Shown: piece by piece, positions 14,907 to 42,811 of the stretch | Layout: every line of letters starts with the position of its first letter | How positions within the stretch are numbered: position 1 is the first letter of the stretch | NCBI GenBank assembly: GCA_043809315.1 | Contig: JAZDDX010000017.1 | Location: forward strand, 98,075-162,074 | DNA from: Pseudomonadota bacterium | GTDB lineage: Bacteria > Bdellovibrionota_G > JALEGL01 > DATDPG01 | Direction of reading: 5' to 3' | Length of the DNA stretch: 64,000 bases | Translations under genes and position numbers: made by a program | The notes under the pieces: model-generated | What the model saw: the letters and a program-made list of their open reading frames with translations, nothing else | Told to the model about the DNA's origin: nothing | The model's database searches: none

Positions 14907-16419
14907 GGCTCAACTCCTCTTTCAGTAGTTGGTTTAGGACGGCCGGATTTGCTTTCCCTTGTGTCGCCTTCATGACTTGTCCGACAAAGAAGCCGAACAT
15001 CTTTTCTTTTCCTGCTCGATATTGCGCGAGCTGGTCGGTATTCGTCGCCAGCACCTTCTGGATTGTTTTGCGGATCGAGTCGGTGTCGGAGATCTGAGTC
15101 AATCCTTTCACTTTCACAATCTCTTGAGCGGCCTTACCCGACTCCGCCATCTCGTCCAGGACATCCTTCGCTATTTTTCCGCTGATCGTTCCTGCGTCGA
15201 TCATCTTTAAGAGGGCGCTGAGATTTTCGGGACGGATCTTCAGTTGTTCGATTGATTCCGTTCGTTCTTTAACGAGACGAAGGATCTCCCCCATGACGTA
15301 GTTGCTGACCGTCTTCGCTTTCTCCGGATTCCCCGGCGCATAAGCGGTGAGCGTCGCCTCAAAATAGTCAGCGACCTCTTTCTCCGCGGTCAGAACGTCG
15401 GCATCGTAGGACGGTAAGGCAAAATCCTTCTCGAATCGTGCGCGACGTTCATTGGGCAATTCAACCCTTCCGGCTGTACGAGCATCTATCGAAGCGGAGA
15501 CCGTCACAGCGTCGGTCAGACTTTGTTCGAGTGGCCTACCCCTCTCATGGAGCCATTTCTCGGGCACGTTTAGGGGCAAGAGATCCGGCTCGGGGAAATA
15601 CCGGTAGTCGTGCGTTTCTTCTTTCGATCGCATCGAGGTGGTGATCCCCTGATCCGGATTCCACAGCCGCGTTTCCTGATGAATCTTCTTACCCGCTTGA
15701 AGTGCCTTTGTCTGGCGGTCGACTTCGTATTCAAGTGCTTTCCGAACGTGCTTGAACGAATTCAGATTCTTGATCTCGACCTTCGTGCCGAACTCCTTCA
15801 CACCCACGGGGCGGAGCGATACGTTCGCATCGCATCGCAAGCTTCCTTCCTCCATGTTCCCGTCGCAGACTTCAATGTACTTCAGTACCTGACGGAGTTC
15901 TTTCAGATAGTCTGAAGCCTCAGCGGGGGAGCGGAGGTCAGGGGCACCGACGATTTCGATCAGGGGAACGCCGCACCGATTGAGGTCCACCAGGCTCCCC
16001 TCCTTCGTCTGGAGGTTGTCGCCGTGGAGGAGTTTCCCCGCATCCTCCTCGAGATGAACGCGGATGATTTTGATCGTTCGAGAACCGTCATCTCCCTTGA
16101 TTTCAATTCTCCCGTTGACCGCAAGGGGCTGGTCAAACTGCGAGATCTGATAGCCTTTCGGAAGGTCCGGATAGAAATAGTTTTTCCGTGCAAATACCGA
16201 GTGCCTATTTATCGTACAATTCAGACTGTTGGCCGCCCACACGGCGAACCGGATGGCCATGGAGTTGACCACCGGAAGGGCACCGGGGAGCCCCAGGCAG
16301 ACGGGGCAGGTGAGCGTGTTCGGTTCGCGACCGAAGAGGTTCTCGCAACGGCAGAACATCTTCGTCTTCGTCTTGAGCTGTGCGTGGACTTCGAGTCCGA
16401 TGATCGTCTCGAAGCTCAC
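14896..16419 (-). CDS. gatB: Asp/Glu-tRNA amidotransferase subunit B
   Basis: IGLEVHAQL, RKNYFYPDLPKGYQISQ, DYRYFPEPDL, C-terminal YqeY-like GQVMKAT. Confidence 0.98.
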   Translation of the reverse strand: MSFETIIGLEVHAQLKTKTKMFCRCENLFGREPNTLTCPVCLGLPGALPVVNSMAIRFAVWAANSLNCTINRHSVFARKNYFYPDLPKGYQISQFDQPLAVNGRIEIKGDDGSRTIKIIRVHLEEDAGKLLHGDNLQTKEGSLVDLNRCGVPLIEIVGAPDLRSPAEASDYLKELRQVLKYIEVCDGNMEEGSLRCDANVSLRPVGVKEFGTKVEIKNLNSFKHVRKALEYEVDRQTKALQAGKKIHQETRLWNPDQGITTSMRSKEETHDYRYFPEPDLLPLNVPEKWLHERGRPLEQSLTDAVTVSASIDARTAGRVELPNERRARFEKDFALPSYDADVLTAEKEVADYFEATLTAYAPGNPEKAKTVSNYVMGEILRLVKERTESIEQLKIRPENLSALLKMIDAGTISGKIAKDVLDEMAESGKAAQEIVKVKGLTQISDTDSIRKTIQKVLATNTDQLAQYRAGKEKMFGFFVGQVMKATQGKANPAVLNQLLKEELSRGV

Positions 16420-31801: not shown

Positions 31802-32339
31802 GAGAATAGTAAGGACCCTGGCGGAAGATCGAGCGGGTCACCTCTGGCTGAAAGTCAGGGGGGAGGGAAGGGCCTGTCGGGTTGTGACGGTGATGGACGC
31901 GTGCGCGCTCCTGGGTCGGAGTCGTCGGCAGATCTACCGGTATCTCGAGTCGAGACAGCTGGAACCCAAGGGAAGGCTGGGTCAGGAACTTCTGGTCGAT
32001 GCCGATTCGCTCTCCCGGATCGCCGCCGGGGCGCGCTCGAATCGGCCTCTTCCGGCGGGGTTTCAAAGTCATTTTCCTGAATATCGCGTGCGGGATCTTC
32101 ACCCGTCCCGGGACCGTACGGTCGTCCTGTCGAGACTGCTCGAGCACGGGACGTACGAGGACCTTCGGTGGATGTGCCGCCGCTACTCTCGGGCGACGCT
32201 TCGTGCCTTCGTGAAGGGAGAAGGCGCACGGCTTCTCTCGAAGCGAAGCGCGAACTTCTGGGGTGTGATCTTCGGGGTGAAGTCCGCAGCTCCCTCCGGA
32301 CGTGATCTTGGTCTCGACCCGTGGAGGAAGAGGATATGA
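31800..32339 (+). CDS. HTH plus DUF6922-like putative antitoxin
   Basis: HTH VMDACALLGRSRRQIYRY; C-terminal F-x-EY...VLSRLLEHG...LRW...Y pattern; ATGA-coupled to the next gene. Confidence 0.7.
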   Translation: MRIVRTLAEDRAGHLWLKVRGEGRACRVVTVMDACALLGRSRRQIYRYLESRQLEPKGRLGQELLVDADSLSRIAAGARSNRPLPAGFQSHFPEYRVRDLHPSRDRTVVLSRLLEHGTYEDLRWMCRRYSRATLRAFVKGEGARLLSKRSANFWGVIFGVKSAAPSGRDLGLDPWRKRI

Positions 32340-32974
32340 AATTCTTCGAAGAGGTGGTCGATCGGGCAACGATCGAAGCGGCGAAGAGTCTGGGGGCGGC
32401 TCTGGGGGAGCGATTCTATCTGGCCGGAGGGACTGCGATCGCGCTGCAGCTGCGACACCGGATCTCTCTGGATCTGGATCTCTTTTCCGGGACGAACGAA
32501 CTGCGCGACCGGGACCGGGATTCGATCTTACGCGCTCTTCGCCCGGCGGGTGGTTTGGAGGTGGTGGAGAATAGCGAAGGAACGCTGAACCTGCGGATCG
32601 ATGGCGCGGCCGTGAGCCTCTTCCATTACCCCTATCCGCTCGTGCACGTGGTGGCCGGCAAGTGGCAAGGGCTTCCGGTGGCCGATCTTCGGGACATCGG
32701 AGCGATGAAGTTGAGCGCGGTGGTCGGGCGGGGGTCGAAAAAAGATTTTATCGATCTCTTCTTCTTGGCGAAAAAACTGGGGCTTCGGGCGTCGTTGGAA
32801 ACCGCGGAGGGGAGATTCCGTGATCATCCCGGGTTTACGATTGCGGCCCTGAAGGCCCTAGTCTATTTCGAGGACGCCGAAAAAGAGTCGATGCCGCGGA
32901 TGAGGAAGCCGGCCGACTGGGAAGAGATGAAGCGGTTTTTCCGGCGGGAGGTCCGCGCACTCTTTAGGCCGTAG
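32336..32974 (+). CDS. AbiEii/AbiGii-family nucleotidyltransferase toxin
   Basis: FYLAGGTAIALQLRHRISLDLDLF, DIGAMKL, RGSKKDFIDL, KALVYFEDAE. Confidence 0.9.
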   Translation: MKFFEEVVDRATIEAAKSLGAALGERFYLAGGTAIALQLRHRISLDLDLFSGTNELRDRDRDSILRALRPAGGLEVVENSEGTLNLRIDGAAVSLFHYPYPLVHVVAGKWQGLPVADLRDIGAMKLSAVVGRGSKKDFIDLFFLAKKLGLRASLETAEGRFRDHPGFTIAALKALVYFEDAEKESMPRMRKPADWEEMKRFFRREVRALFRP

Positions 32975-32978
32975 AAGA

Positions 32979-33069
32979 TGGTGCCGGGAGCCGGACTCGA
33001 ACCGGCATGACCCCGTAAAGGGTCTCGGGATTTTAAGTCCCGTGCGTCTACCAATTTCGCCACCCCGGC
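32979..33069 (-). tRNA. tRNA-Leu(TAA)
   Basis: GCCGGGG acceptor stem, CGGGA-CTTAAAA-TCCCG anticodon arm, long variable arm, GGTTCGAGTCC T arm, encoded CCA. Confidence 0.97.
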
Positions 33070-33117
33070 ACGCTTGAAATTATTGAACTATTTTACTTTC
33101 CTCCAAACTACAAGTTC
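33029..33117. repeat. att site, left copy (5' half of tRNA-Leu plus upstream region)
   Basis: 41 bp identical to 39681-39721, then 48 bp with 4 mismatches. Confidence 0.95.
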
Positions 33118-33122
33118 CGTCT

Positions 33123-33142
33123 GTGTCCGTTTTGGTGTCCAC
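33123..33142. repeat. Putative integrase arm-binding site, left
   Basis: GTGTCCGTTTTGGTGTCCAC, identical to 39532-39551; contains two GTGTCC units. Confidence 0.75.
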
Positions 33143-33148
33143 TTTTTG

Positions 33149-33964
33149 TCAGAAACGAGCCGTCCTATCCCCTATGCTTGTGGTCAACCGAACCAGGCGA
33201 CGGCCCCACACACATGGTCGTTTTAGCCCGAAGAAGAGATACCAGAACACAAAGTAGTTAGATCCGATCAGGAGTATCAGAAACTCCCTCCAATTTGGAA
33301 GGCGTTGGATTTGTTCGCCGAACTGAGACGTGCCAGACGAATAGGTTCGAATTGCCAGGTTCTCAAAGTTCTTTGGATACTGAAACTCGATCCCACTTTT
33401 ATCACTGTATCGAATCCTATCCACGTACGACCAAACTTTGGGATTGGGGGGCCACTCTCCTGGTCGTCTGAATGTTCCGTACATACTGACCCGAAACCAA
33501 TCGAGCAGCCATTCGCGAACCCAAACGAGGCCAAGGCTCCTTATAATCTGAAGGGATCTTCCTCGTTCCATGAGGCTTTCTAGGTCTTCTACTGCCTTCT
33601 TCTTTCTCTCTTCCTCAGCCGATACCACTTCTGGTTCCTTGCCTTTAGTTCGTGCACCTCGGGCCGAGCCTACAATCTGGATGTCTTCCGTTGCATCATC
33701 ATAATCTGGACTTCTTCTGAGGAGGCTCCTTACAGGAAAACAGAGAATGGCGAGCACGAAGACCGTCGTAAACAGGATCAAGTACCAGAAATCGCGATCA
33801 TCGCTCCATCGAAGTAGGAGCCTCTTAAGCCACAAGGGTACGAACCACCGAATCCGAAGCGTCCGGAAAATTGTTGGGACATCTTTCGCGACAGTGAAAT
33901 ACCCGAAGAAGATTGCAAACAGTTCCCAGGGGGGCCACGTAACTGATTTCCTGCTTTTGGGCAT
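33149..33964 (-). CDS. Hypothetical membrane protein (element cargo)
   Basis: 271 aa with about three hydrophobic helices; AT-rich; directly downstream of the integrase. Confidence 0.65.
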   Translation of the reverse strand: MPKSRKSVTWPPWELFAIFFGYFTVAKDVPTIFRTLRIRWFVPLWLKRLLLRWSDDRDFWYLILFTTVFVLAILCFPVRSLLRRSPDYDDATEDIQIVGSARGARTKGKEPEVVSAEEERKKKAVEDLESLMERGRSLQIIRSLGLVWVREWLLDWFRVSMYGTFRRPGEWPPNPKVWSYVDRIRYSDKSGIEFQYPKNFENLAIRTYSSGTSQFGEQIQRLPNWREFLILLIGSNYFVFWYLFFGLKRPCVWGRRLVRLTTSIGDRTARF

Positions 33965-33990
33965 TTAGCGTCTCCCCAATCGCCTAGCGT

Positions 33991-35049
33991 TTAGTGTTTC
34001 GAGTTTGCGATTTCAGCAGGGACCGTACTCTGTTGCGGTCGCACATCAACCGTTTTCAGAAAGTCCCGCAAATCGCCTTCTGTGAGGTTTGTGTATCGAT
34101 CAAAGACCTTCCGCGTCTTGTGGCCGGAAATTGCCATTATCGCCTTTTCTGGGATCCCCCGCTTAACCCAGCGGGTTACTGCCATGTGCCGGAGGTCATG
34201 AAAGTGGAAGTTTTCGATCTGCGCTCGGTCACAAGCACGCAAGAACCCCTCTCGAATCGAACGAATACGATGCCCGTTCCGATGGAACACGTAAGGGCAG
34301 TGGAGAAGGCGGATCTTCGCAGAGATAATCTGCGAGAGGCGGGAGTTGATCGGGATTGTGCGGCGAGTTCGTGTCTTGGTGTCGTCAGCGGTGAGCCGAA
34401 TAAACCCCTGCTTCAAGTCCACTCTGTCCCAAGTCAGGTTGAGAATTTCACCTAGCCGCATCGCCGTTTCGTAGCCAACCTCAATAATGGTACGGGTGAG
34501 GGGAGGTGCCGAGTCTAGGAGGTGGCCATACTCCTCTTCAGTCAGAATCCTCTCGCGTTGCAGATGATCCTCGTTGAACAAACGCACGGAGTGAATCGGG
34601 TTTCTTTCCAGTTTCCCGTCTCGGACGAGTCGGCCGAACATCGCCTTGAGGCAAGCCAACTCTCGGTTGATCGTGCTGACGGCAACGGGTGTTCCCATCC
34701 TGGTGGTTTGGTTCCGCCGTGCCTCTTTATATCGTTCGATCTCGGAAGGGAGGATGTCGCGGACCTTTCGTTGCCCGAAATGCCGAACGAGGCGTCGGCA
34801 GATGTTGATGTCGCTTGCATGAGAACGCTTTCGAGCAGTGTTTTGAAGGTAGTCCTTCGCCATTTCATCCAAGGTAAGATTCGACAGAATCTTCTTGTCG
34901 AATATCCGGTTCTCCTTGATCTCGACCTTTCTCTTGGCAAGCGCCTTCTCTGCTTCTCGCTTCGTGGTCGGACCCAGGCTTTCCCGGAATCGCCGACCGT
35001 TGACGCGATAATCAAGCATCCAATTCCTATTCTTTCTGAAAACGCCCAT
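33991..35049 (-). CDS. int: Tyrosine recombinase / phage integrase
   Basis: N-terminal arm-binding domain, STINRELACL, TAMRLGEI (R), KT (K), HFHDLRH (HxxR), ISGHKT (H), RY (Y). Confidence 0.97.
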   Translation of the reverse strand: MGVFRKNRNWMLDYRVNGRRFRESLGPTTKREAEKALAKRKVEIKENRIFDKKILSNLTLDEMAKDYLQNTARKRSHASDINICRRLVRHFGQRKVRDILPSEIERYKEARRNQTTRMGTPVAVSTINRELACLKAMFGRLVRDGKLERNPIHSVRLFNEDHLQRERILTEEEYGHLLDSAPPLTRTIIEVGYETAMRLGEILNLTWDRVDLKQGFIRLTADDTKTRTRRTIPINSRLSQIISAKIRLLHCPYVFHRNGHRIRSIREGFLRACDRAQIENFHFHDLRHMAVTRWVKRGIPEKAIMAISGHKTRKVFDRYTNLTEGDLRDFLKTVDVRPQQSTVPAEIANSKH

Positions 35050-35065
35050 AACGTACCTCCGACGG

Positions 35066-35758
35066 TTAGACTCCCGTTTTTTTCCGTCCTACCGAGTAAT
35101 TCTTCGCGTATAATCTATTTTGATACTTGTTATATGTCTCTCGGTTCTTCTCTCGCCAGGCATAGATGCGGTCCTTTTTCACTTTGGACTTGCACTCGTT
35201 CGAGCATCTCATGGCTCCTCTTCTGCTCTTGCTGACGAAGATTCGATTGCAGACATCGCATGTGTGAAGGAGTGCCATGGGGAAGTTGTTGAGGGCATCG
35301 GAAAAGAGTTTCTTTGCGCGAAATACCTTATCTTCGGTCGCTGTGATTTGATGCACCATGCCCTTCACTAGGTAGAACTCGGTGCTGATGGTTTCACGGG
35401 GGCGCGGTGGAAAGTCGGCAACTTCCCCAAGAAAAGACCAGCCAACAACATCCCTCGTGTAGTCCCTTGGTCCAGTGATCAGCCGCAGGACGCTGCGCAT
35501 CCAAGCCTGGAGTTCCCTAATCTCTTTAACGTTAAATGCATTTGGGCGTTGATCCCAGAGCATGTCTCCCGGCACCCGATGTAATAGGCCGTCGAATAAC
35601 CATGCTTTCGTGATCCTTTTGTTCTTCTCGAAGGGGATGCGCCCAGTGCCGCCTGACGGGCACTTGTCGTCCAATACCTCCTTCAGATGGTCTTCGGGGC
35701 AGTTGATGAACTGCGCATAGAACCGAATCCGGTCTTCCTTCGGTGTTGGCGCTTGCAT
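35066..35758 (-). CDS. Protein with C-terminal CGNR-like zinc finger
   Basis: CDVCNRIF...RCSNEC followed by a basic helix; co-oriented upstream of int. Confidence 0.7.
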   Translation of the reverse strand: MQAPTPKEDRIRFYAQFINCPEDHLKEVLDDKCPSGGTGRIPFEKNKRITKAWLFDGLLHRVPGDMLWDQRPNAFNVKEIRELQAWMRSVLRLITGPRDYTRDVVGWSFLGEVADFPPRPRETISTEFYLVKGMVHQITATEDKVFRAKKLFSDALNNFPMALLHTCDVCNRIFVSKSRRGAMRCSNECKSKVKKDRIYAWREKNRETYNKYQNRLYAKNYSVGRKKTGV

Positions 35759-35916
35759 TTATAGTTTCCTAAAGACGGCGAACTGGGGTGATGCCTGAAA
35801 CATCAAAAAGTGATGGAAGAACACGGAAGCGCCTTCAAAAAACCCTGAGGGGGTTGTATGGTCAAAATCGTAGTTGCACATAAATGATAACAACATACAA
35901 CTATGGAGGCGAATCG

Positions 35917-36114
35917 ATGTCAACAGAAAAGAGGGAACCTGAACCGTTGGTAGATATTGCCGCAGCGGCTAGGTTCCTGGCCGTGCGTGAGAATACGATT
36001 CGGATTTGGTGCTGCGAAGGGAAGCTTAAACCTTTAAGGGCCGGACGGCGTCTGCGCTTCCGTCTGAGCGACCTAGTAAGATGGGCGGAGGGCATAAGCG
36101 ATGTTCAATCCTGA
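35917..36114 (+). CDS. Excisionase-like HTH (MerR/HTH_17) protein
   Basis: GGAGG RBS; AAARFLAVRENTIRIW...GRRLRFRLSDL. Confidence 0.85.
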   Translation: MSTEKREPEPLVDIAAAARFLAVRENTIRIWCCEGKLKPLRAGRRLRFRLSDLVRWAEGISDVQS

Positions 36115-36292
36115 TGACAAGACGACCCCTTTCGATCTTGATTTCTCCGTTCGCGAACTAATCTCGCGGCGACTGAAGAAGCTCCAAGCCGTCTACGAAC
36201 TTCAAAAGCCCTCATTCATTCGGAGACATCTGCATCAACTTGAAGTTCTGACAGATATTTTGTTTGGCTCGGACGATCGAACAGCCGATTAA
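36101..36292 (+). CDS. Small hypothetical protein
   Basis: 63 aa; overlaps both neighbours. Confidence 0.55.
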   Translation: MFNPDDKTTPFDLDFSVRELISRRLKKLQAVYELQKPSFIRRHLHQLEVLTDILFGSDDRTAD

Positions 36293-36738
36293 TGTCCGAG
36301 GCGTTCTTTATGATTCCCCGTCAATGGTACGAGGACGGCTCCCTGTTTTCGGGAAGCGGGGCCAGGGTCCTCCTGGCGCTGGCGAAAAGAGCGAACCACG
36401 GTGCTCCCAAATCCTACCGGGGAAGCTGGATCAATAAGGGGGAGCTGGTAGTGGGAACAAAGGAGTTGGCTCGGGAAGTTCAAGTTCCGCGATCGACCGT
36501 GTACCGGCACTTGAAGCGGTACGAAAGAGACGGGAAATTGAGACTGAAGGCGGGACGCGACAAAACGCTGGTTTCCATCGTTGATTTCGCCACTTACAGA
36601 GACGCACCAGCAAGAAATGGCACACCGATTGAGACTCAAGGTGAGACACCACCCGAGACATCGGCCGGGAACAAACAAGAGAGAAAGAACAATAAGATGG
36701 TCGCAGCTTCGGAGATTTCGGTGTGGCCACGACTTTAA
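36292..36738 (+). CDS. Phage-type replication initiator-like winged-HTH protein
   Basis: LAKRANH, INKGELV...ELAREVQVPRSTVYRHLKRY...TLVSIVDF; internal 12-bp periodic repeats. Confidence 0.65.
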   Translation: MSEAFFMIPRQWYEDGSLFSGSGARVLLALAKRANHGAPKSYRGSWINKGELVVGTKELAREVQVPRSTVYRHLKRYERDGKLRLKAGRDKTLVSIVDFATYRDAPARNGTPIETQGETPPETSAGNKQERKNNKMVAASEISVWPRL

Positions 36739-37700
36739 TTCCGAAAACCATCACAGCGAAGGAGGTAGACCGATGGCAACCACCATACGAAAGGAGTCCG
36801 ATTGCTGTCGGGGACATCTCCAATTCGGTCGTCCACATCCGCGAACTGTTCGACCACGTGATCAATGCACGGACAGCTAATCCTGAGACGACCTACGGAC
36901 ATCCAACCCAATGCTGGCCTGTGTTCGCGCGAGCATTTGGAGGACTTCGGCCTGGTGAACTGACAGTCGTGACGGCTGAAACGGGTGCGGGCAAGACCAC
37001 GTTCGCTCTGAATTGGGCGGCTGACTATGCCCGACCTGGTACGAACGGAGTGTTCTATGTCTCCTTGGAAATGTCGAAACAGGCAACTGCCGAAAAACTC
37101 GCTCAGCTTATCCACCGGAAGCCTGTCCGGGAGTTCGACCAAGGGACCAACTTCACTGATTTGAGGGCGGTTAGGGAGGTGTTCGACCGCCTAAACTTTT
37201 GGTTCTTTGATCATTACGGCCGAGTTAAAACAGATCGCCTATTCAAAGCGATTTGGTACGCAGTCTGTGAGAAGAAAACGCGGCTGGTTGTGATCGACCA
37301 CCTCGCCTATCTCGTCCACCAGGACAGGGCCGAAAATCAGACCATTGCAGTCGAAAACACGATGCGGGACCTGGCACTGGTCGCGAATCAAACAGGTTCA
37401 ACAATTCTTCTCGTCGTTCATCCGAGAAAAGGGACGCCTGATGAAAAACGACGACCTCTTGAGCTAGATGACCTGAAGGGATCTTCGGCAATCTCTCAGG
37501 AGGCTTCCAACGTCCTTTCGCTGTTTCGGCCGGACCGCACTAAATCCGAAACGTATCTGTTCTTCTTAAAGATTCGGTCCCACCACTTCGCTCATTCATT
37601 GGGCGGGGGAATCCGGTTCAACTTCAATCCCAGAAGCCTTTGGCTGGAAGAAGAGTCGAAGGAGATCGAGTTTCGGGGAGGTCGAAATCATGGGGTTTAA
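36723..37700 (+). CDS. SF4 (DnaB/T7 gp4/Twinkle-like) helicase without primase domain
   Basis: GLRPGELTVV, Walker A AETGAGKT, SLEM, VIDHL, VVHPRK, DLKGSSAISQEA. Confidence 0.88.
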   Translation: MATTLIPKTITAKEVDRWQPPYERSPIAVGDISNSVVHIRELFDHVINARTANPETTYGHPTQCWPVFARAFGGLRPGELTVVTAETGAGKTTFALNWAADYARPGTNGVFYVSLEMSKQATAEKLAQLIHRKPVREFDQGTNFTDLRAVREVFDRLNFWFFDHYGRVKTDRLFKAIWYAVCEKKTRLVVIDHLAYLVHQDRAENQTIAVENTMRDLALVANQTGSTILLVVHPRKGTPDEKRRPLELDDLKGSSAISQEASNVLSLFRPDRTKSETYLFFLKIRSHHFAHSLGGGIRFNFNPRSLWLEEESKEIEFRGGRNHGV

Positions 37701-38019
37701 GAGCCCGGAGACTCGCCGAGCCTACCACCGTGAGTACAAGCGACTTCACAGGGGTGGGGTTTGTCAAACCCCCGGTCAAACCCAGGTCCCGACGGAATTT
37801 CGGATAAAAACGGCAAAAGACATTCTCGATTTATTGGCAGAACAGATCGAGGTAATTCGAGGAGATTCGACGATCAGCTCAACCGAACGCGCGCGTACGA
37901 TCGGCTACCTCGCGGGAATTTCATTGAGGGCAGTGGAGGCAGCAGACCTAGCGGTAAGAGTAGAGGCCATTGAAGCAGTGTTCAAGAATAGAAAGGCTTT
38001 TACAGATGAAGCTAAGTAA
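37690..38019 (+). CDS. Hypothetical helical protein
   Basis: GGAGG RBS; 109 aa; C-terminal coiled coil DLAVRVEAIE. Confidence 0.7.
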   Translation: MGFKSPETRRAYHREYKRLHRGGVCQTPGQTQVPTEFRIKTAKDILDLLAEQIEVIRGDSTISSTERARTIGYLAGISLRAVEAADLAVRVEAIEAVFKNRKAFTDEAK

Positions 38020-38536
38020 CGATTGCTACCAGGAACTCGACGCCAAGGAACGGTGGCGACTAGCCTTGGCTGCCAGAACACGCAATGACCTGCGCGAATA
38101 TCGCCGCCTTCAAGATACGTGTCCTTATTGTCAGGTTGTAAAAGAAGATCCCGAGTTTACCTGGCTCATGGGGCGGAGTCGCGACATCGGTGCCGTTTTC
38201 ACGATCTATTGGCTTAGGATTGCGCTTTGGAAAGCAGAACTGTGCTGGTGCCTCGCGGAAATCGAGCAGATCGAATCATCGGATAACCAACTGAGAAAAC
38301 GTGCGGCTGATCGCTTGGATTCGGTGATTTCAAAGGAAAAAGGACTTCACGAGGGGCTAGAAAAGTTCTGTCAAGCCATAGGAATCCAAGCAAATGCCCT
38401 TCTTTGTATCTACCCTGATGTGGCGGAAGGTTACGCTGAGACGACTAGCCGGATACCCCCCGAAGTCATTGCGGACCCAACGGCGGTAAACACAGTCTAC
38501 GACCAGTTCATGGAAATCTGGAAAGGTCTGCCTTGA
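38006..38536 (+). CDS. Hypothetical protein
   Basis: Overlaps the previous gene; helical, 176 aa. Confidence 0.65.
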   Translation: MKLSNDCYQELDAKERWRLALAARTRNDLREYRRLQDTCPYCQVVKEDPEFTWLMGRSRDIGAVFTIYWLRIALWKAELCWCLAEIEQIESSDNQLRKRAADRLDSVISKEKGLHEGLEKFCQAIGIQANALLCIYPDVAEGYAETTSRIPPEVIADPTAVNTVYDQFMEIWKGLP

Positions 38537-38574
38537 ATACGACCCCGGCTGATTAACCGGGCGCTAAGCCAAAT

Positions 38575-38799
38575 CTACTTTGCCTCGAAATCGAGCAGCT
38601 TACCCAGGGGTACGCCAATGGTTTGGGCGATCTTTGCCAACGTGACAATTTGTGGATTTACTAGGCCGTTTTCGATTTTCGATAGTGTCCCGCGCGAAAA
38701 TCCGGCCTCCAAATAGACGCGATCTTGGCTATAACCCCTTGACTTGCGAACCTTTGCGATATGTTTCCCCAGACGCGCAAGAAATGTCGTCGTGTTCAC
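38575..38799 (-). CDS. XRE-family HTH regulator
   Basis: LGKHIAKVRKSRGYSQ...TLSKIENGLVNP...TLAKIA. Start could extend to 38820. Confidence 0.88.
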   Translation of the reverse strand: MNTTTFLARLGKHIAKVRKSRGYSQDRVYLEAGFSRGTLSKIENGLVNPQIVTLAKIAQTIGVPLGKLLDFEAK

Positions 38800-38893
38800 T
38801 ACATGATTCTGAGACGGCAAACATTCGACTCTCTTCCTATAGGAAGGTAAAAAGAAGGAAGGTCTTGAGAATAGCAGATACTCGGGGGTTCAG

Positions 38894-39277
38894 ATGACAA
38901 GAACGAAGATCATTTTTGCGTTCATGGCGCTTTCGCTCCTCGCCGGATGTGGCGCCACCATCGTTTCGACAAAGCGAAACCTCTCCAACGATCCAAATGC
39001 CCCCGTGGCCTCAGGTCCTGATGGAGGCGAGATCAAGTTCTTGAACGAGGGACTAAGGGAATCGGTTGCGCAGGAGCAGCGGCAAGACGCCTACCGCCAA
39101 ATGAAGGATTATTGTCATGGACCGTACAAGATCGTCTCCGAAGAAACCAAATGGGAGCCGTATTCAGTGTCGGCCTGGGTTAACCCGACTCCTGCGCATG
39201 TCGTACACGTCAAATTTGAGTGCCTACCGGAAGGAGTCACAACCACCGATGGAAAGACGTCCAATCCTAAGGAGTAG
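38894..39277 (+). CDS. Hypothetical lipoprotein
   Basis: Lipobox LAGC; internal Cys pair (YCHG...FEC). Confidence 0.75.
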   Translation: MTRTKIIFAFMALSLLAGCGATIVSTKRNLSNDPNAPVASGPDGGEIKFLNEGLRESVAQEQRQDAYRQMKDYCHGPYKIVSEETKWEPYSVSAWVNPTPAHVVHVKFECLPEGVTTTDGKTSNPKE

Positions 39278-39482
39278 GAACCTAGTTGTCGCGCTGTTCT
39301 TTCTGATGGGGTGCGGAAGCGACGATAAAACCCCCGCTTGCGATGCAGCTTGCCAAGAGAGCCTTTGCCGGGATGGGTACTCAATATGTTACGACGGGTG
39401 TCAAATCGGTGGAGTAGATTTCTCGTGCCTGGCGGCGTGTGACAAAAAATGGTGTGCGTGCAGTGCAAAAGGTTGTTCATGA
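39249..39482 (+). CDS. Small cysteine-rich lipoprotein (77 aa)
   Basis: MERRPILRSRNLVVALFFLMGC followed by 10 more Cys in about 55 residues. Confidence 0.65.
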   Translation: MERRPILRSRNLVVALFFLMGCGSDDKTPACDAACQESLCRDGYSICYDGCQIGGVDFSCLAACDKKWCACSAKGCS

Positions 39483-39531
39483 AAAAAACAAAACGAAGGA
39501 CCCCAAGGCGATCTTCTTCCCCTCCCTGGAA

Positions 39532-39551
39532 GTGTCCGTTTTGGTGTCCAC
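39532..39551. repeat. Putative integrase arm-binding site, right
   Basis: Exact copy of 33123-33142. Confidence 0.75.
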
Positions 39552-39680
39552 ATTCGGCAGATTTCAGCGAATTTCGATGAAGAATGGCGAACGGTGGTTT
39601 AGGGAGGAAGTCGAGGCTAGAAAAGGCGTTTAGAGGGATTCGGGTCGACCTTCGCGGGGTTACAAAAACGCGGTCGGGTC

Positions 39681-39769
39681 GATTTTAAGTCCCGTGCGTC
39701 TACCAATTTCGCCACCCCGGCGCACTTGAAATTATTGAACTATTTTACTTTCTTCCAAACCACAAGTTC
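39681..39769. repeat. att site, right copy (displaced 5' fragment of tRNA-Leu plus upstream region)
   Basis: Matches 33029-33117; the tRNA fragment stops just after the anticodon loop. Confidence 0.95.
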
Positions 39770-39885
39770 TGACCACTGCGAGAACGTCCAAGAAGCGCAA
39801 TTGCCTCCATAAAGGCGCTCTGCAATTATTTCAGAGCCTGACCCCGTAAACACGCTCTAACTATTGAATATCGTTACCTACTTGC

Positions 39886-39902
39886 CGGTATGAACCGTGC
39901 AT
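39886..39902 (+). promoter_or_regulatory. Putative sigma-54 promoter
   Basis: CGGTATGAACCGTGCAT (GG-N10-GC) with an AT-rich, IHF-like tract upstream. Confidence 0.4.
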
Positions 39903-39919
39903 AATCATAAAGAATCATC

Positions 39920-42811
39920 ATGAGGAAGAGGATTTGGGTTCTGGTTCTTCTCCTGGCCGGCTGTTCCAGCGGGATGGGAGATGCTGCCAAAACCGATGTT
40001 GGCAACGGCGACGGCACTGCCGTCCCTACCGTCGACGTCACCAATGGGGTTCTTCCTCTTTCTTCACTCTGCGGGAACGGCGTCGTCGATTCGGGGGAGA
40101 AATGCGATCCGTTGTTCGGATGCCCTCACGAATGTCCCCAGACCGATTCCTGCCGGAAACCGAAACTCGTCGGGGACCCTTGGCGTTGCAGCGCGGAGTG
40201 TGCGTACGACGCCATCACCGCATGCGCGAATGACGACGGATGTTGCGCGGCAGGGTGCACCAGGGAGAACGACAACGACTGTTTCAAATACTACGTCGAC
40301 GCGAACGGCGGGTCCGATTCGAACAACGGACTCGCGCCCGACAAGGCCTGGAAGACGATCGCCAAGGTGAACGGTTCTTCGCTGGTTGCCGGGGATTCGG
40401 TCGGATTCAAACGAGGTGAGACCTGGCGGGAAACGCTCGTCATTCCGTCCTCCGGAGCCACGGGGAACCGGATCGTCTTCGGAGCGTACGGGAACGGGGA
40501 GAAGCCGCTGATCAACCCGACGACCCGAGTCCAGAGCTGGAGGGTATCGAGTGGAAACGTCTGGGAGGCCGATGTCAGCTCTCCGATGCGGCAGCTCCTG
40601 TTCGACGGCGAACTCCTTCCACTCGCCCATGATCCAAACGGTGATTTTCATACGATCGACGTCGACAGCCCGATCGGGACTTCCCTTGTGGACGCCGGCA
40701 TCGCATCCCATGCGGCGGAACTGACCGACGCCACCGTCTGCATCCGGACGGTCGATTGGGAGATCGAGGAACGAAAGGTCACGTCGTTCGACGCCGGAAC
40801 GAATACGCTCAATTTCGACACCGCCGTCCGGTACGCGGTCAACGCCGGTCGTGGCTATTACCTTGAAAACCGGAGGTGGATGCTCGACTCGGCCGGGGAG
40901 TGGTTCTTCGATGCCGGGGCGGGGCGTCTCTACCTCTGGCCCCCCGGGAACGTGAATCCGAACGAACACACAGTCGAGGTCTCCCCGCTCAACACGACCA
41001 GCGCGGTCGCGAAGGAGGAGGTCGGGATCTACGGCGTCAATCGACGATACATCACCGTAAGCGATCTCGCCGTGCGCAGCGCCGCCCGAATTGGCGCTTA
41101 TTTTCAAGACGCCGGTTTCCTCCGCTTAGCCCACCTCGACATCCGATCGATCGGAGGGAACGCAGTCCCCGATCCGGGCTATCTCTGGGGACGAGGGATC
41201 TACGTCAATCGGACGCCGTCGACGGCCGCTGAACCGAGCACGATCGAAGGGAACGTGATCGAAAACACCGTACGCGAAGGGATCTACATCGACGGCTCCC
41301 CGTCCGTCCAAATTCTTCACAATACCGTCCGGAATCCGGGGGCCGTCGGCCTTCCGAGACGAAGTTCCGCCGGAATCGTCGCGGGGAGCGGATCGACCGG
41401 CGCCTTGGTCGAGGGGAACGAGGTCACGAACGCCGGCCTGATGGGGATCGGGTTCTCGGCGGCCAACATCGTGATCCGCCGGAACGTCGTCAACCGCGCC
41501 TGCTCCGTCCTGATGGACTGCGGCGGGATCTACACATGGAATGGCATCGAGACGGACCTGGGCCGTTCGGGGGGCACCATCGAACGAAACGTCGTCATGA
41601 ACTCGATCGGGAACCCAACCGGTACGGGGAGAACCACGTATGGCGCCCACGGCATCTACTTCGACAACCGGAGCAACGGGCTCACGGTTCGGGAGAACGC
41701 GTCGATCCGGAACCGCCGAGCCGGGATCTATTTCAGCAACAACTTCGACGACACGATCTTGAAAAACAACTTGTACGGCAACGACGTGGCCGGGATGAGG
41801 TTCGGCGAACATGGGTGGGACGGAATGGCCGATTTCGGTCCCGGCTTTGTGCACGGGAACAACGCCAGCGGAAACGTCCTCTTTTCGACATCGGCCGAAA
41901 GTTTGGGCCTTCAGGTCGAGAGCGATTTCGATCCTCCTCATGTCGCGGAGTTCGCTGGGAACGCGTACGTCCAGCCGTACAATCGGGTGCGTGCGGTCTC
42001 CACCATCCGAAGCTCCCCATGGCTGGAGCAGTTCTTCATGTTGTCGGGATGGCAATCGTTGACCGGAAACGACCCGACCGGGTGGACGACGGACGCTTTT
42101 TACGAAGTCGTCCCGTTTGTGGCTCGAACGATCGCCGGACCGGAGATCATTGCAAACGGCACTTTCAATGCGGACGTTTCAAGCTGGCGTACCTGGCCGG
42201 CGGATCTTCCGCACGAATGGGTTTCCGACTGCGGGCTGAACGGGGGGTGCTACAAGGGGACCAAGCGCGCGGATACCGGGTCGGTACAGGAGCTCGGATA
42301 CGCCGGTCCGTTCGGCGTCACGAAAGACCGGACGTATCTTCTCCGCTTCAGCGCTCGCGCGAGCAAATACGAGCGGGTTCGCGTGAACCTCATGATGCAC
42401 GAATCTCCGTGGAGCACCCTCTGGACCGACACGTTGGCGATCGGCCCGTTCCGATCGGAGCACGCGTTTATCGTCAAAAGCGCGCAGACCCTGCAAGCGC
42501 GACTTCAATTTCAGAGCGGTCCGACCACGGGGGTCGATTACTATTTCGACAACGTGACGCTCAAAGAGGCCTCGGACATCACCTACAACGAGACCTGGGA
42601 TGACAGCCGGATTCTCTTCAACGCCTCGAGCGTCGAACGGACGTTGCCGTTGGGTGAACCGTATTGCGATCTCCAGGGAAACGTCGTCAGCGGAAGCGTC
42701 CCTCTCGGCGCGTTCGAATCGCAAGTACTTCTCTCCTGTTTCTGCAACCGGGACGGGGGCTGCAACAACCGCGAAACCAAGGACACGTGTCCTTCCGATT
42801 GCGGCGGTTGA
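39920..42811 (+). CDS. Large lipoprotein: Cys-rich repeats, right-handed beta-helix (pectate-lyase-like) and CBM4/9-like module
   Basis: Lipobox LAGC; CGNGVVDSGEKCD; YYVDANGGSDSNNG...AWKTI; GIY...IxxN repeats; IANGTFN...YFDNV. Confidence 0.85.
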   Translation: MRKRIWVLVLLLAGCSSGMGDAAKTDVGNGDGTAVPTVDVTNGVLPLSSLCGNGVVDSGEKCDPLFGCPHECPQTDSCRKPKLVGDPWRCSAECAYDAITACANDDGCCAAGCTRENDNDCFKYYVDANGGSDSNNGLAPDKAWKTIAKVNGSSLVAGDSVGFKRGETWRETLVIPSSGATGNRIVFGAYGNGEKPLINPTTRVQSWRVSSGNVWEADVSSPMRQLLFDGELLPLAHDPNGDFHTIDVDSPIGTSLVDAGIASHAAELTDATVCIRTVDWEIEERKVTSFDAGTNTLNFDTAVRYAVNAGRGYYLENRRWMLDSAGEWFFDAGAGRLYLWPPGNVNPNEHTVEVSPLNTTSAVAKEEVGIYGVNRRYITVSDLAVRSAARIGAYFQDAGFLRLAHLDIRSIGGNAVPDPGYLWGRGIYVNRTPSTAAEPSTIEGNVIENTVREGIYIDGSPSVQILHNTVRNPGAVGLPRRSSAGIVAGSGSTGALVEGNEVTNAGLMGIGFSAANIVIRRNVVNRACSVLMDCGGIYTWNGIETDLGRSGGTIERNVVMNSIGNPTGTGRTTYGAHGIYFDNRSNGLTVRENASIRNRRAGIYFSNNFDDTILKNNLYGNDVAGMRFGEHGWDGMADFGPGFVHGNNASGNVLFSTSAESLGLQVESDFDPPHVAEFAGNAYVQPYNRVRAVSTIRSSPWLEQFFMLSGWQSLTGNDPTGWTTDAFYEVVPFVARTIAGPEIIANGTFNADVSSWRTWPADLPHEWVSDCGLNGGCYKGTKRADTGSVQELGYAGPFGVTKDRTYLLRFSARASKYERVRVNLMMHESPWSTLWTDTLAIGPFRSEHAFIVKSAQTLQARLQFQSGPTTGVDYYFDNVTLKEASDITYNETWDDSRILFNASSVERTLPLGEPYCDLQGNVVSGSVPLGAFESQVLLSCFCNRDGGCNNRETKDTCPSDCGG

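Follow-up and report, generated by a model that had tools for sequence, protein, structure and literature searches.

How does a mobile element come to lie on the 5' side of a tRNA gene, and on which DNA does the tRNA depend afterwards? This question is raised by a locus of a Pseudomonadota bacterium (GTDB lineage Bacteria; Bdellovibrionota_G; JALEGL01; DATDPG01; assembly GCA_043809315.1). The window, that is, the whole stretch of DNA analysed, comprises 64,000 nucleotides of contig JAZDDX010000017.1 (positions 98,075 to 162,074, forward strand) and harbours a 6,652-bp island placed on the 5' side of the tRNA-Leu(TAA) gene. The reading favoured here, with a probability of roughly 60%, is that the island is a 6.6-kb tyrosine-integrase element, which likely recombined in reverse orientation at the seven-base anticodon loop, into a site whose 48 upstream bases probably stem from an earlier sister element.

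The island is delimited by an 89-nt direct repeat (33029–33117 and 39681–39769; 85 of 89 positions identical; spacing 6,652). Each copy holds tRNA positions 1–41, ending with the 7-nt anticodon loop (33–39) and two further nucleotides, together with 48 nt of upstream sequence. The 41 tRNA bases do not differ between the copies, and the four mismatches (33070/39722, 33072/39724, 33101/39753 and 33109/39761) are all transitions within the 48 upstream bases. The initial annotation had described the duplicated segment and the position of the island upstream of the tRNA in the same way. A blastn search of the repeat against the whole genome returned nothing above 90% identity beyond these two copies (E 3e-41 and 9e-36). 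The intact tRNA gene scores 58.9 bits against Rfam RF00005, and an Rfam scan of 32800–40200 found nothing besides it. It is the sole TAA-anticodon tRNA among the 45 called in a genome that is 96% complete, a point that had been left for checking. The GC content is 0.52 in the island and 0.62 and 0.59 in the 5-kb flanks. The parts of the two junctions are listed below; G002 is a genome from the same family as the host.

32979..33069, minus strand: intact tRNA-Leu(TAA) (tRNA call, Rfam)
33031..33037, minus strand: 7-nt anticodon loop, putative strand-exchange (overlap) region (sequence; fragment ends in relatives)
33029..33117, minus strand: repeat copy at the integrase end, the junction that restores the tRNA (repeat search, alignment)
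33070..33117, minus strand: 48-bp AT-rich spacer (31% GC) between arm and core, which aligns colinearly with the G002 element-side arm (alignment)
33123..33145, no strand assigned: putative paired arm-type repeat, 89 bp from the loop centre (repeat search, G002 alignment)
39532..39554, no strand assigned: second putative paired arm-type repeat, 132 bp from the loop centre (repeat search, alignment)
39681..39721, minus strand: displaced 5' tRNA fragment, positions 1–41 (repeat search, blastn)
39722..39769, minus strand: host-side copy of the 48-bp spacer (44 of 48), with no arm repeats before it, likely a relic (alignment)

The arm-repeat pattern has two matches in the whole genome, one at each island end (33123 and 39532), and is conserved in G002; about 54 bp separate the tRNA from the arm repeats. 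The integrase points toward the tRNA gene, is co-oriented with it and is intact, its end lying about 0.9 kb from the attachment (att) site. With this arrangement, positions 1 to about 39 of the intact tRNA-Leu(TAA) would come from the element and the 3' half from the host. The geometry also supports the earlier claim that all DNA upstream of the intact gene is element DNA, from which the rebuilt tRNA would have to be transcribed.

The right junction could alternatively be the remnant of a head-to-tail tandem of the same element, with its upstream copy deleted, or the repeat could be an assembly artefact. The order of spacer, 5' half and arm at this junction does resemble a truncated free-circle site. 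However, four transitions in 48 bp beside an identical tRNA part fit a sister element or an old event better, and family relatives place the same flanking genes on both sides of the tRNA, which makes either explanation very unlikely.

Where the crossover lies was approached through relatives of the integrase. Among 240 loci fetched by integrase alignment, 27 were without a plus-strand match at E 1e-10, leaving 213 usable. A tRNA or tmRNA gene lies within 2.5 kb of 50 of these (163 have none): it is downstream and convergent in 26, downstream and co-oriented, as in the window, in 15, and placed otherwise in nine. The survey of integrase homologs suggested with the initial annotation thus found the same orientation in 15 of 50 tRNA-near loci. 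Searches of three collections returned no locus with a full-length integrase at least 45% identical to that of the window or to its eight closest relatives. The closest integrase (G002, 56% identical) came from the phylum genomes, and seven of the eight closest (P0002, P0003, P0005–P0009) are sequences without genomic context. The closest one with a named source is labelled Bdellovibrionota, and its start matches the integrase of G002.

A 5' tRNA fragment is present at eight of the 12 co-oriented genome loci (G002 and 11 others), while one locus (G048) is ambiguous and three have none. The fragments derive from tRNA-Trp (G002), tRNA-Arg-CCT (G047, G043), tRNA-Arg-TCT (G042), tRNA-Arg-TCG (G041), tRNA-Leu-TAA (G044) and tRNA-Thr-TGT (G050 and G051, the latter differing in its first 5 nt). 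All end at the 3' edge of the loop or within 5 nt of it, and the identity upstream of the tRNA is limited to 0–7 nt in all eight. G048 holds only an 82% copy of the integrase end plus the 5' half. No 5' fragment was found for G045 in a genome search that included 60 kb upstream, nor for G046 and G049 with queries from other genomes. At the convergent loci, a 3' fragment (at least 90% identity) starts at positions 28–33 in five of 11, and none was found in four. The same start positions apply to the element at tRNA-Trp in the genome studied here; tRNA-Trp is used in a 3' layout in this genome and in a 5' layout in G002. As the 5' and 3' fragment classes overlap at the anticodon loop, the crossover is placed there by comparison, in agreement with the initial annotation; the four mismatches between the repeat copies give no position for it within the 41 identical bases.

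How stable the orientation is can be judged from an integrase tree of 47 rows, 40 of them labelled (15 for the 5' layout, 25 for the other). The labelled rows comprise 36 fetched loci (tRNA at most 300 nt downstream, open reading frame (ORF) of at least 230 aa) and four integrases from G000 (the genome studied here), G002 and G012; 26 of the 40 labels come from orientation alone, and several rows have long branches. The tree requires eight changes of layout over the labelled rows, at least five of them forced by starred branches, compared with a shuffled mean of about 12. Restricted to the fragment-verified rows (n = 14), four changes are needed. Opposite layouts occur in integrases that are 76% identical. 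The 5' layout accounts for 15 of 40 tree rows in this integrase group versus about 4% in the Islander catalogue of genomic islands. Within this group of integrases, orientation is labile and shows no link to TTA.

The origin of the 48 upstream bases is the second part of the question. All eight relatives with a 5' fragment share only 0–7 upstream nt with it, hence such elements normally bring unrelated upstream DNA. A gapless alignment of the integrase-side copy with the element-side sequence of G002, fixed at the arm repeat, gives 24 of 32 matches in the arm region and 24 of 48 in the spacer (binomial P 0.0012). Over the 22 nt proximal to the tRNA, 18 match. The corresponding values are 9/22 for the host side of G002, 9–13/22 for the tRNA-Leu(TAA) upstream regions of five relatives and at most 12/22 for 43 other tRNA upstream regions of this genome. 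The host-side copy carries the same proximal block but matches the arm region at only four of 32 positions and lacks arm repeats. Colinearity with the G002 arm, taken together with the 0–7 nt seen in relatives, implies that the host-side copy is probably a relic and not the original promoter. Judged by these alignments, the 48-bp block is probably element DNA, and an earlier sister element would have left the host-side copy behind.

A parallel case occurs in G041 (L348, G041:C19:2269379-2274313), where an integrase-free 4.8-kb cassette lies upstream of tRNA-Arg(ACG). An element-type 24-nt spacer precedes both the intact gene and the 5' fragment. A sister element that has an integrase and lies at a different tRNA carries a spacer to which the two 24-mers match at 21 and 19 of 24 positions, compared with 6/24 for the host flank of that sister. 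The G041 assembly, 16 Mb in size, may be mixed.

The initial annotation had read the right copy as the original host upstream region. In line with this, the 48 bp could be the host's own tRNA-Leu(TAA) promoter, captured into the att site in such a way that the gene retains its usual promoter, with the G002 element descending from a leucine-targeting ancestor. A promoter model trained on 39 upstream regions of tRNA and tmRNA genes of this genome, with leave-one-out scoring, bears on this claim. The two copies score 3.0 and 3.7, less than the median of 5.4 for shuffled versions of their sequence, and 32 of the 39 host regions score at least 4.0; the 95th percentile of random 70-mers is 5.8. According to the model, the 48-bp copies thus fail to match the tRNA promoter pattern of this genome at the usual distance.

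Several observations weigh against the relic reading, and some of them suit a captured host promoter. The right copy occupies a position at which host DNA would be expected, and no other trace of an older element was seen upstream: a search of 39770–64000 found neither a third tRNA fragment nor an arm repeat nor any remnant of an integrase above background. A generic sigma-70 scan marks a −35/−10-like pair (9/12) in the host-side copy, ending 9 nt before the tRNA, in a search that found three sites versus 3.6 expected. Capture would also explain the long identity block in one step. The likeness to G002 is limited to −26..−5, the distal part (−48..−27) giving 6/22, and the 22-nt window was picked after inspection of the alignment. 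When 15 other element spacers were compared with the block, the shuffle test gave at best 49/1000, for a single spacer. An empty site was not encountered, as the 40 relatives and 16 other genomes of the phylum that were searched held no genome of the same genus; members of the family share only flanking genes with this locus. Moreover, four of the 12 co-oriented relatives are without a clean fragment, and two convergent loci gave 5'-side matches (L034, 24 nt; L022, about 100 bp upstream of its tRNA). Low GC content had been considered as a sign of element origin and was set aside, since in G003 and G004 the DNA upstream of tRNA-Leu(TAA) has 38% and 36% GC. The L022 match (L022:1855-1889) is a tRNA-Asn 5' fragment upstream of an intact tRNA-Asn with a convergent integrase downstream; it could mark where an element of the 5' layout was deleted.

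Capture of the host promoter is nevertheless considered rather improbable. The short upstream identity in all eight relatives speaks against it, the block is missing from the tRNA-Leu(TAA) upstream regions of the five relatives, the shared upstream block in G041 is element-type, and the copies score below both their shuffles and most host regions. The 18/22 likeness to the G002 arm, compared with at most 12–13/22 for host regions, likewise disagrees with the right copy being the original host upstream region.

For transcription of the rebuilt tRNA, a promoter within 33070–33117 has no better support than read-through from the integrase unit, which is co-oriented with the gene. If a transcript came in at the right end, it would run antisense to a lipoprotein-like ORF (38894..39277) and sense to an Xre gene (38575..38820), and a scan found no minus-strand terminator-like site between the two.

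The initial annotation further proposed that the element could control TTA decoding. In such a scheme, resembling the bldA precedent for a TTA-decoding switch, integration and excision would exchange the promoter of the sole tRNA-Leu(TAA). The single TAA tRNA among the 45 would suit this idea, as would the codon itself: no leucine codon is rarer than TTA (2.1% of all Leu codons; 2.07 per 1,000 codons in the host), and the island ORFs, with eight TTA in 1,959 codons, use it at about twice the host rate. However, 652 of 1,048 long host ORFs contain TTA, so that the codon is not restricted to some set of regulated genes, and it is absent from the island's integrase, DnaD-like protein and Xre regulator. 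As the upstream copies differ at four bases only, excision would change little. The same layout is found at tRNA-Trp, tRNA-Arg and tRNA-Thr genes in relatives. There is no support for a TTA decoding switch, and this explanation is hardly credible.

Under the preferred reading, integration at a relic target, the free circle would carry the arm repeats, the spacer and the tRNA 5' half on the integrase side. Integration would rebuild the tRNA at the integrase-side junction and leave the resident 5' half at the far end. The rebuilt tRNA would then be transcribed from a weak spacer promoter or by read-through from the unit of the integrase and ORF271. Before that, an earlier element of the same kind would have inserted at this site and later been lost down to −48, so that its arm repeats disappeared and a reusable target was left, into which the present element then inserted. 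If the sequence upstream of the target is such a relic, excision would return a tRNA still preceded by element-type DNA. A farther-reaching possibility is offered tentatively: the native promoter of the sole tRNA-Leu(TAA) may be permanently lost, a domesticated piece of an attachment arm may drive the tRNA and serve as a reusable landing site, and the orientation of the group may flip readily, with 76%-identical enzymes rebuilding opposite halves.

The gene content of the island is as follows.

33149..33964, minus strand: ORF271, 271 aa, hydrophobic stretches, no family match; cargo between integrase and att (ORF, PHROGs/Pfam/NCBIfam, Atlas)
33991..35049, minus strand: tyrosine integrase, 352 aa (PF00589, PF24624, phrog_1; PHROGs, Pfam, alignment)
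35066..35758, minus strand: 230-aa ORF with a C-terminal Cys cluster, weak PHROG matches only (ORF, PHROGs)
35884..36114, plus strand: excisionase-like HTH_17 protein, 76 aa (phrog_66, PF12728; TIGR01764 below cut-off)
36101..36292, plus strand: 63-aa ORF, no family match (PHROGs, Pfam, NCBIfam)
36292..36738, plus strand: winged-HTH protein, 148 aa, like phage DnaD-like helicase loader/replication initiator (phrog_2514, E 1.8e-10; Pfam)
36723..37700, plus strand: DnaB-like helicase, 325 aa (PHROGs, Pfam)
37690..38019, plus strand: 109-aa conserved hypothetical protein (Atlas clusters 0.96–0.97, no common Pfam family)
37970..38536, plus strand: 188-aa ORF, no family match (PHROGs, Pfam, NCBIfam)
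38575..38820, minus strand: Xre-family HTH regulator, 81 aa (PHROGs, PF01381)
38894..39277, plus strand: 127-aa ORF with a signal-like start, no family match (PHROGs, Pfam, NCBIfam)

The integrase matches PF00589 with 85 bits, whereas the Xer and integron models stay far below cut-off. The catalytic set of tyrosine integrases is R-K-H-R-H/W-Y, and the residues R198, K225, H284, R287, H310 and Y319 are invariant across nine aligned relatives. The integrase and the 230-aa ORF run one way, and the block of excisionase-like, DnaD-like and DnaB-like genes diverges from them. The replication module consists of the DnaB-like helicase and the DnaD-like protein, with no match to a primase domain. An Atlas search with ORF271 gave no usable match, and the 127-aa ORF presumably carries a lipobox-like motif. 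Searches with PHROGs, Pfam and NCBIfam found no capsid, terminase or relaxase match among the 11 island ORFs, and no match to packaging or capsid-interference genes in a set where five ORFs are without a family and one has weak matches only. The element is apparently intact.

Related elements are found in the same genome and in the family. The tRNA-Trp element of this genome (contig C3:10794-13475) has the usual 3' layout, and the displaced 3' part of the tRNA lies on contig C15; the helicase of this element is 84% identical to that of the island, the DnaD-like gene 39% and the integrase 32%. The closest sister element, that of G002 (L265:9629-17578), has integrase and excisionase-like genes in common with the island, but its replication ORF (588 aa) differs and its cargo includes a collagen-like ORF.

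Some neighbouring features were also recorded. A 12-base exact match to the tRNA variable arm lies on the same strand at 39839–39850, 70 bp past the right repeat; it is possibly due to chance, such a match being present in 19 of 21,978 genome windows of 220 bp. Directly past the tRNA 3' end, an AbiEii-family gene (32321–32974, PF08843) is located, with another ORF before it. In G004 and G008, a 279-aa gene follows the tRNA by 0.4–0.7 kb, and no AbiEii match was seen near the tRNA in either genome, so the AbiEii gene may be a separate insertion. In G003 (L268:5749-7281), the orientation of tRNA-Leu(TAA) with respect to the 279-aa gene beside it is the reverse of that in G000, G004 and G008. Just past the right repeat, 39920–42811 encode a 963-aa beta-helix protein with a signal-like start. 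Since it has no homolog near the tRNA in five relatives, it is possibly cargo of an older insertion, although the island genes have a clearly lower GC3 than its 0.76. On contig C8 of this genome, the region upstream of tRNA-Pro(GGG) at 15843 is AT-rich, with no integrase nearby, and contains what we take to be an IHF-like motif. A degenerate second tRNA-Leu(CAA) with mismatched stems lies at the contig end (C8:32011-32099) and was called only at a relaxed ARAGORN threshold.

Among known systems, phage satellites of the phage-inducible chromosomal island (PICI) type are defined by an integrase, an excisionase or AlpA-like protein, a regulator, a primase-replicase, packaging or interference genes and a helper. 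The island is like PICIs in being small and in combining an integrase, an excisionase-like protein, a replication module and an HTH regulator, with no virion genes detected. It appears to differ from them in its DnaD-like protein and DnaB helicase, with no primase match and no terminase or capsid-modifying gene detected in its 6.6 kb. By gene content, it would be PICI-like and appears to resemble a satellite-type integrative element. Integrative mobilizable elements with their own relaxase require a relaxase gene, and the island is unlike them, as no relaxase was matched among its 11 ORFs. With lambda-type arm-site systems, it shares the full catalytic residues and putative paired arm repeats on either side of a 7-bp overlap.

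The class of islands with 5' fragments reportedly goes back to Zhao and Williams in 2002. According to the available text of PMC6563490, 5' recombination occurs considerably more rarely; the source given there is Zhao and Williams 2002, a paper also cited in the part of PMC1635311 that was available. For the Islander catalogue (Hudson, Lau and Williams), the accessible sections of PMC4383910 report a 5' tDNA fragment in 159 of 3,919 islands. As far as these sections describe them, the 5' islands of Islander resemble the present one in the intact tRNA with an upstream 5' fragment in the same orientation, the tyrosine integrase and the anticodon-centred site. Regarding the filters given there, the window holds a full tRNA and an end fragment on the same replicon and in the same orientation, with the fragment (39681–39721) upstream of 33069, outside annotated genes and not called as a tRNA; the integrase is of PF00589 and not of the Xer or integron type, and 6,652 bp lies within 2–200 kb. 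Unlike in the Islander islands as described there, the identity block here continues 48 bp past the tRNA 5' end.

Two other systems also use the 5' side. The pTN3-like integrases of Thermococcales target the tRNA 5' half (tRNA-Leu for pTN3), and the rebuilt tRNA is expressed from the integrase promoter, according to the consulted portion of PMC8371274. The targeted half is the same in the window, but these archaeal "suicidal" integrases are split by the att site, while the integrase here is intact, flanked by arm repeats and about 0.9 kb away from att. In Klebsiella, islands upstream of arg2 have 5' repeats over the acceptor stem, D-stem and D-loop and occur mainly in one subclade, in the text available from bioRxiv 10.1101/2020.11.02.365908. 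They are likewise bacterial, located upstream of the tRNA gene and marked by a 5' repeat; the island differs from them in using the anticodon loop and in a layout scattered over the tree.

Term searches of the available texts of PMC9897764, PMC11476347 and PMC12884075 gave nothing on 5' layouts. Repeated flipping of orientation or relic spacers were not met in the literature search, whose coverage was limited and is no proof of their being unpublished. The 5'-fragment layout is rare but already catalogued, and the locus is therefore a tidy example and not a new mechanism. Its worth lies in the lability of orientation within the integrase group and in the probable relic spacer. A long upstream identity can be the relic of an earlier element and should thus not be taken for the original host promoter or the island boundary without an empty site. 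With its labile orientation, the group offers natural pairs in which to study how the direction of insertion at a near-symmetric anticodon stem-loop is determined and from where a rebuilt tRNA obtains its promoter. The locus may be compared with tRNA-dependent lysogeny, in which, according to the accessible part of PMC10865867, the phage brings a separate tRNA gene instead of rebuilding the tRNA. As in that case, the host here would depend on element DNA for an essential tRNA, but at the present locus the tRNA is rebuilt at the junction itself.

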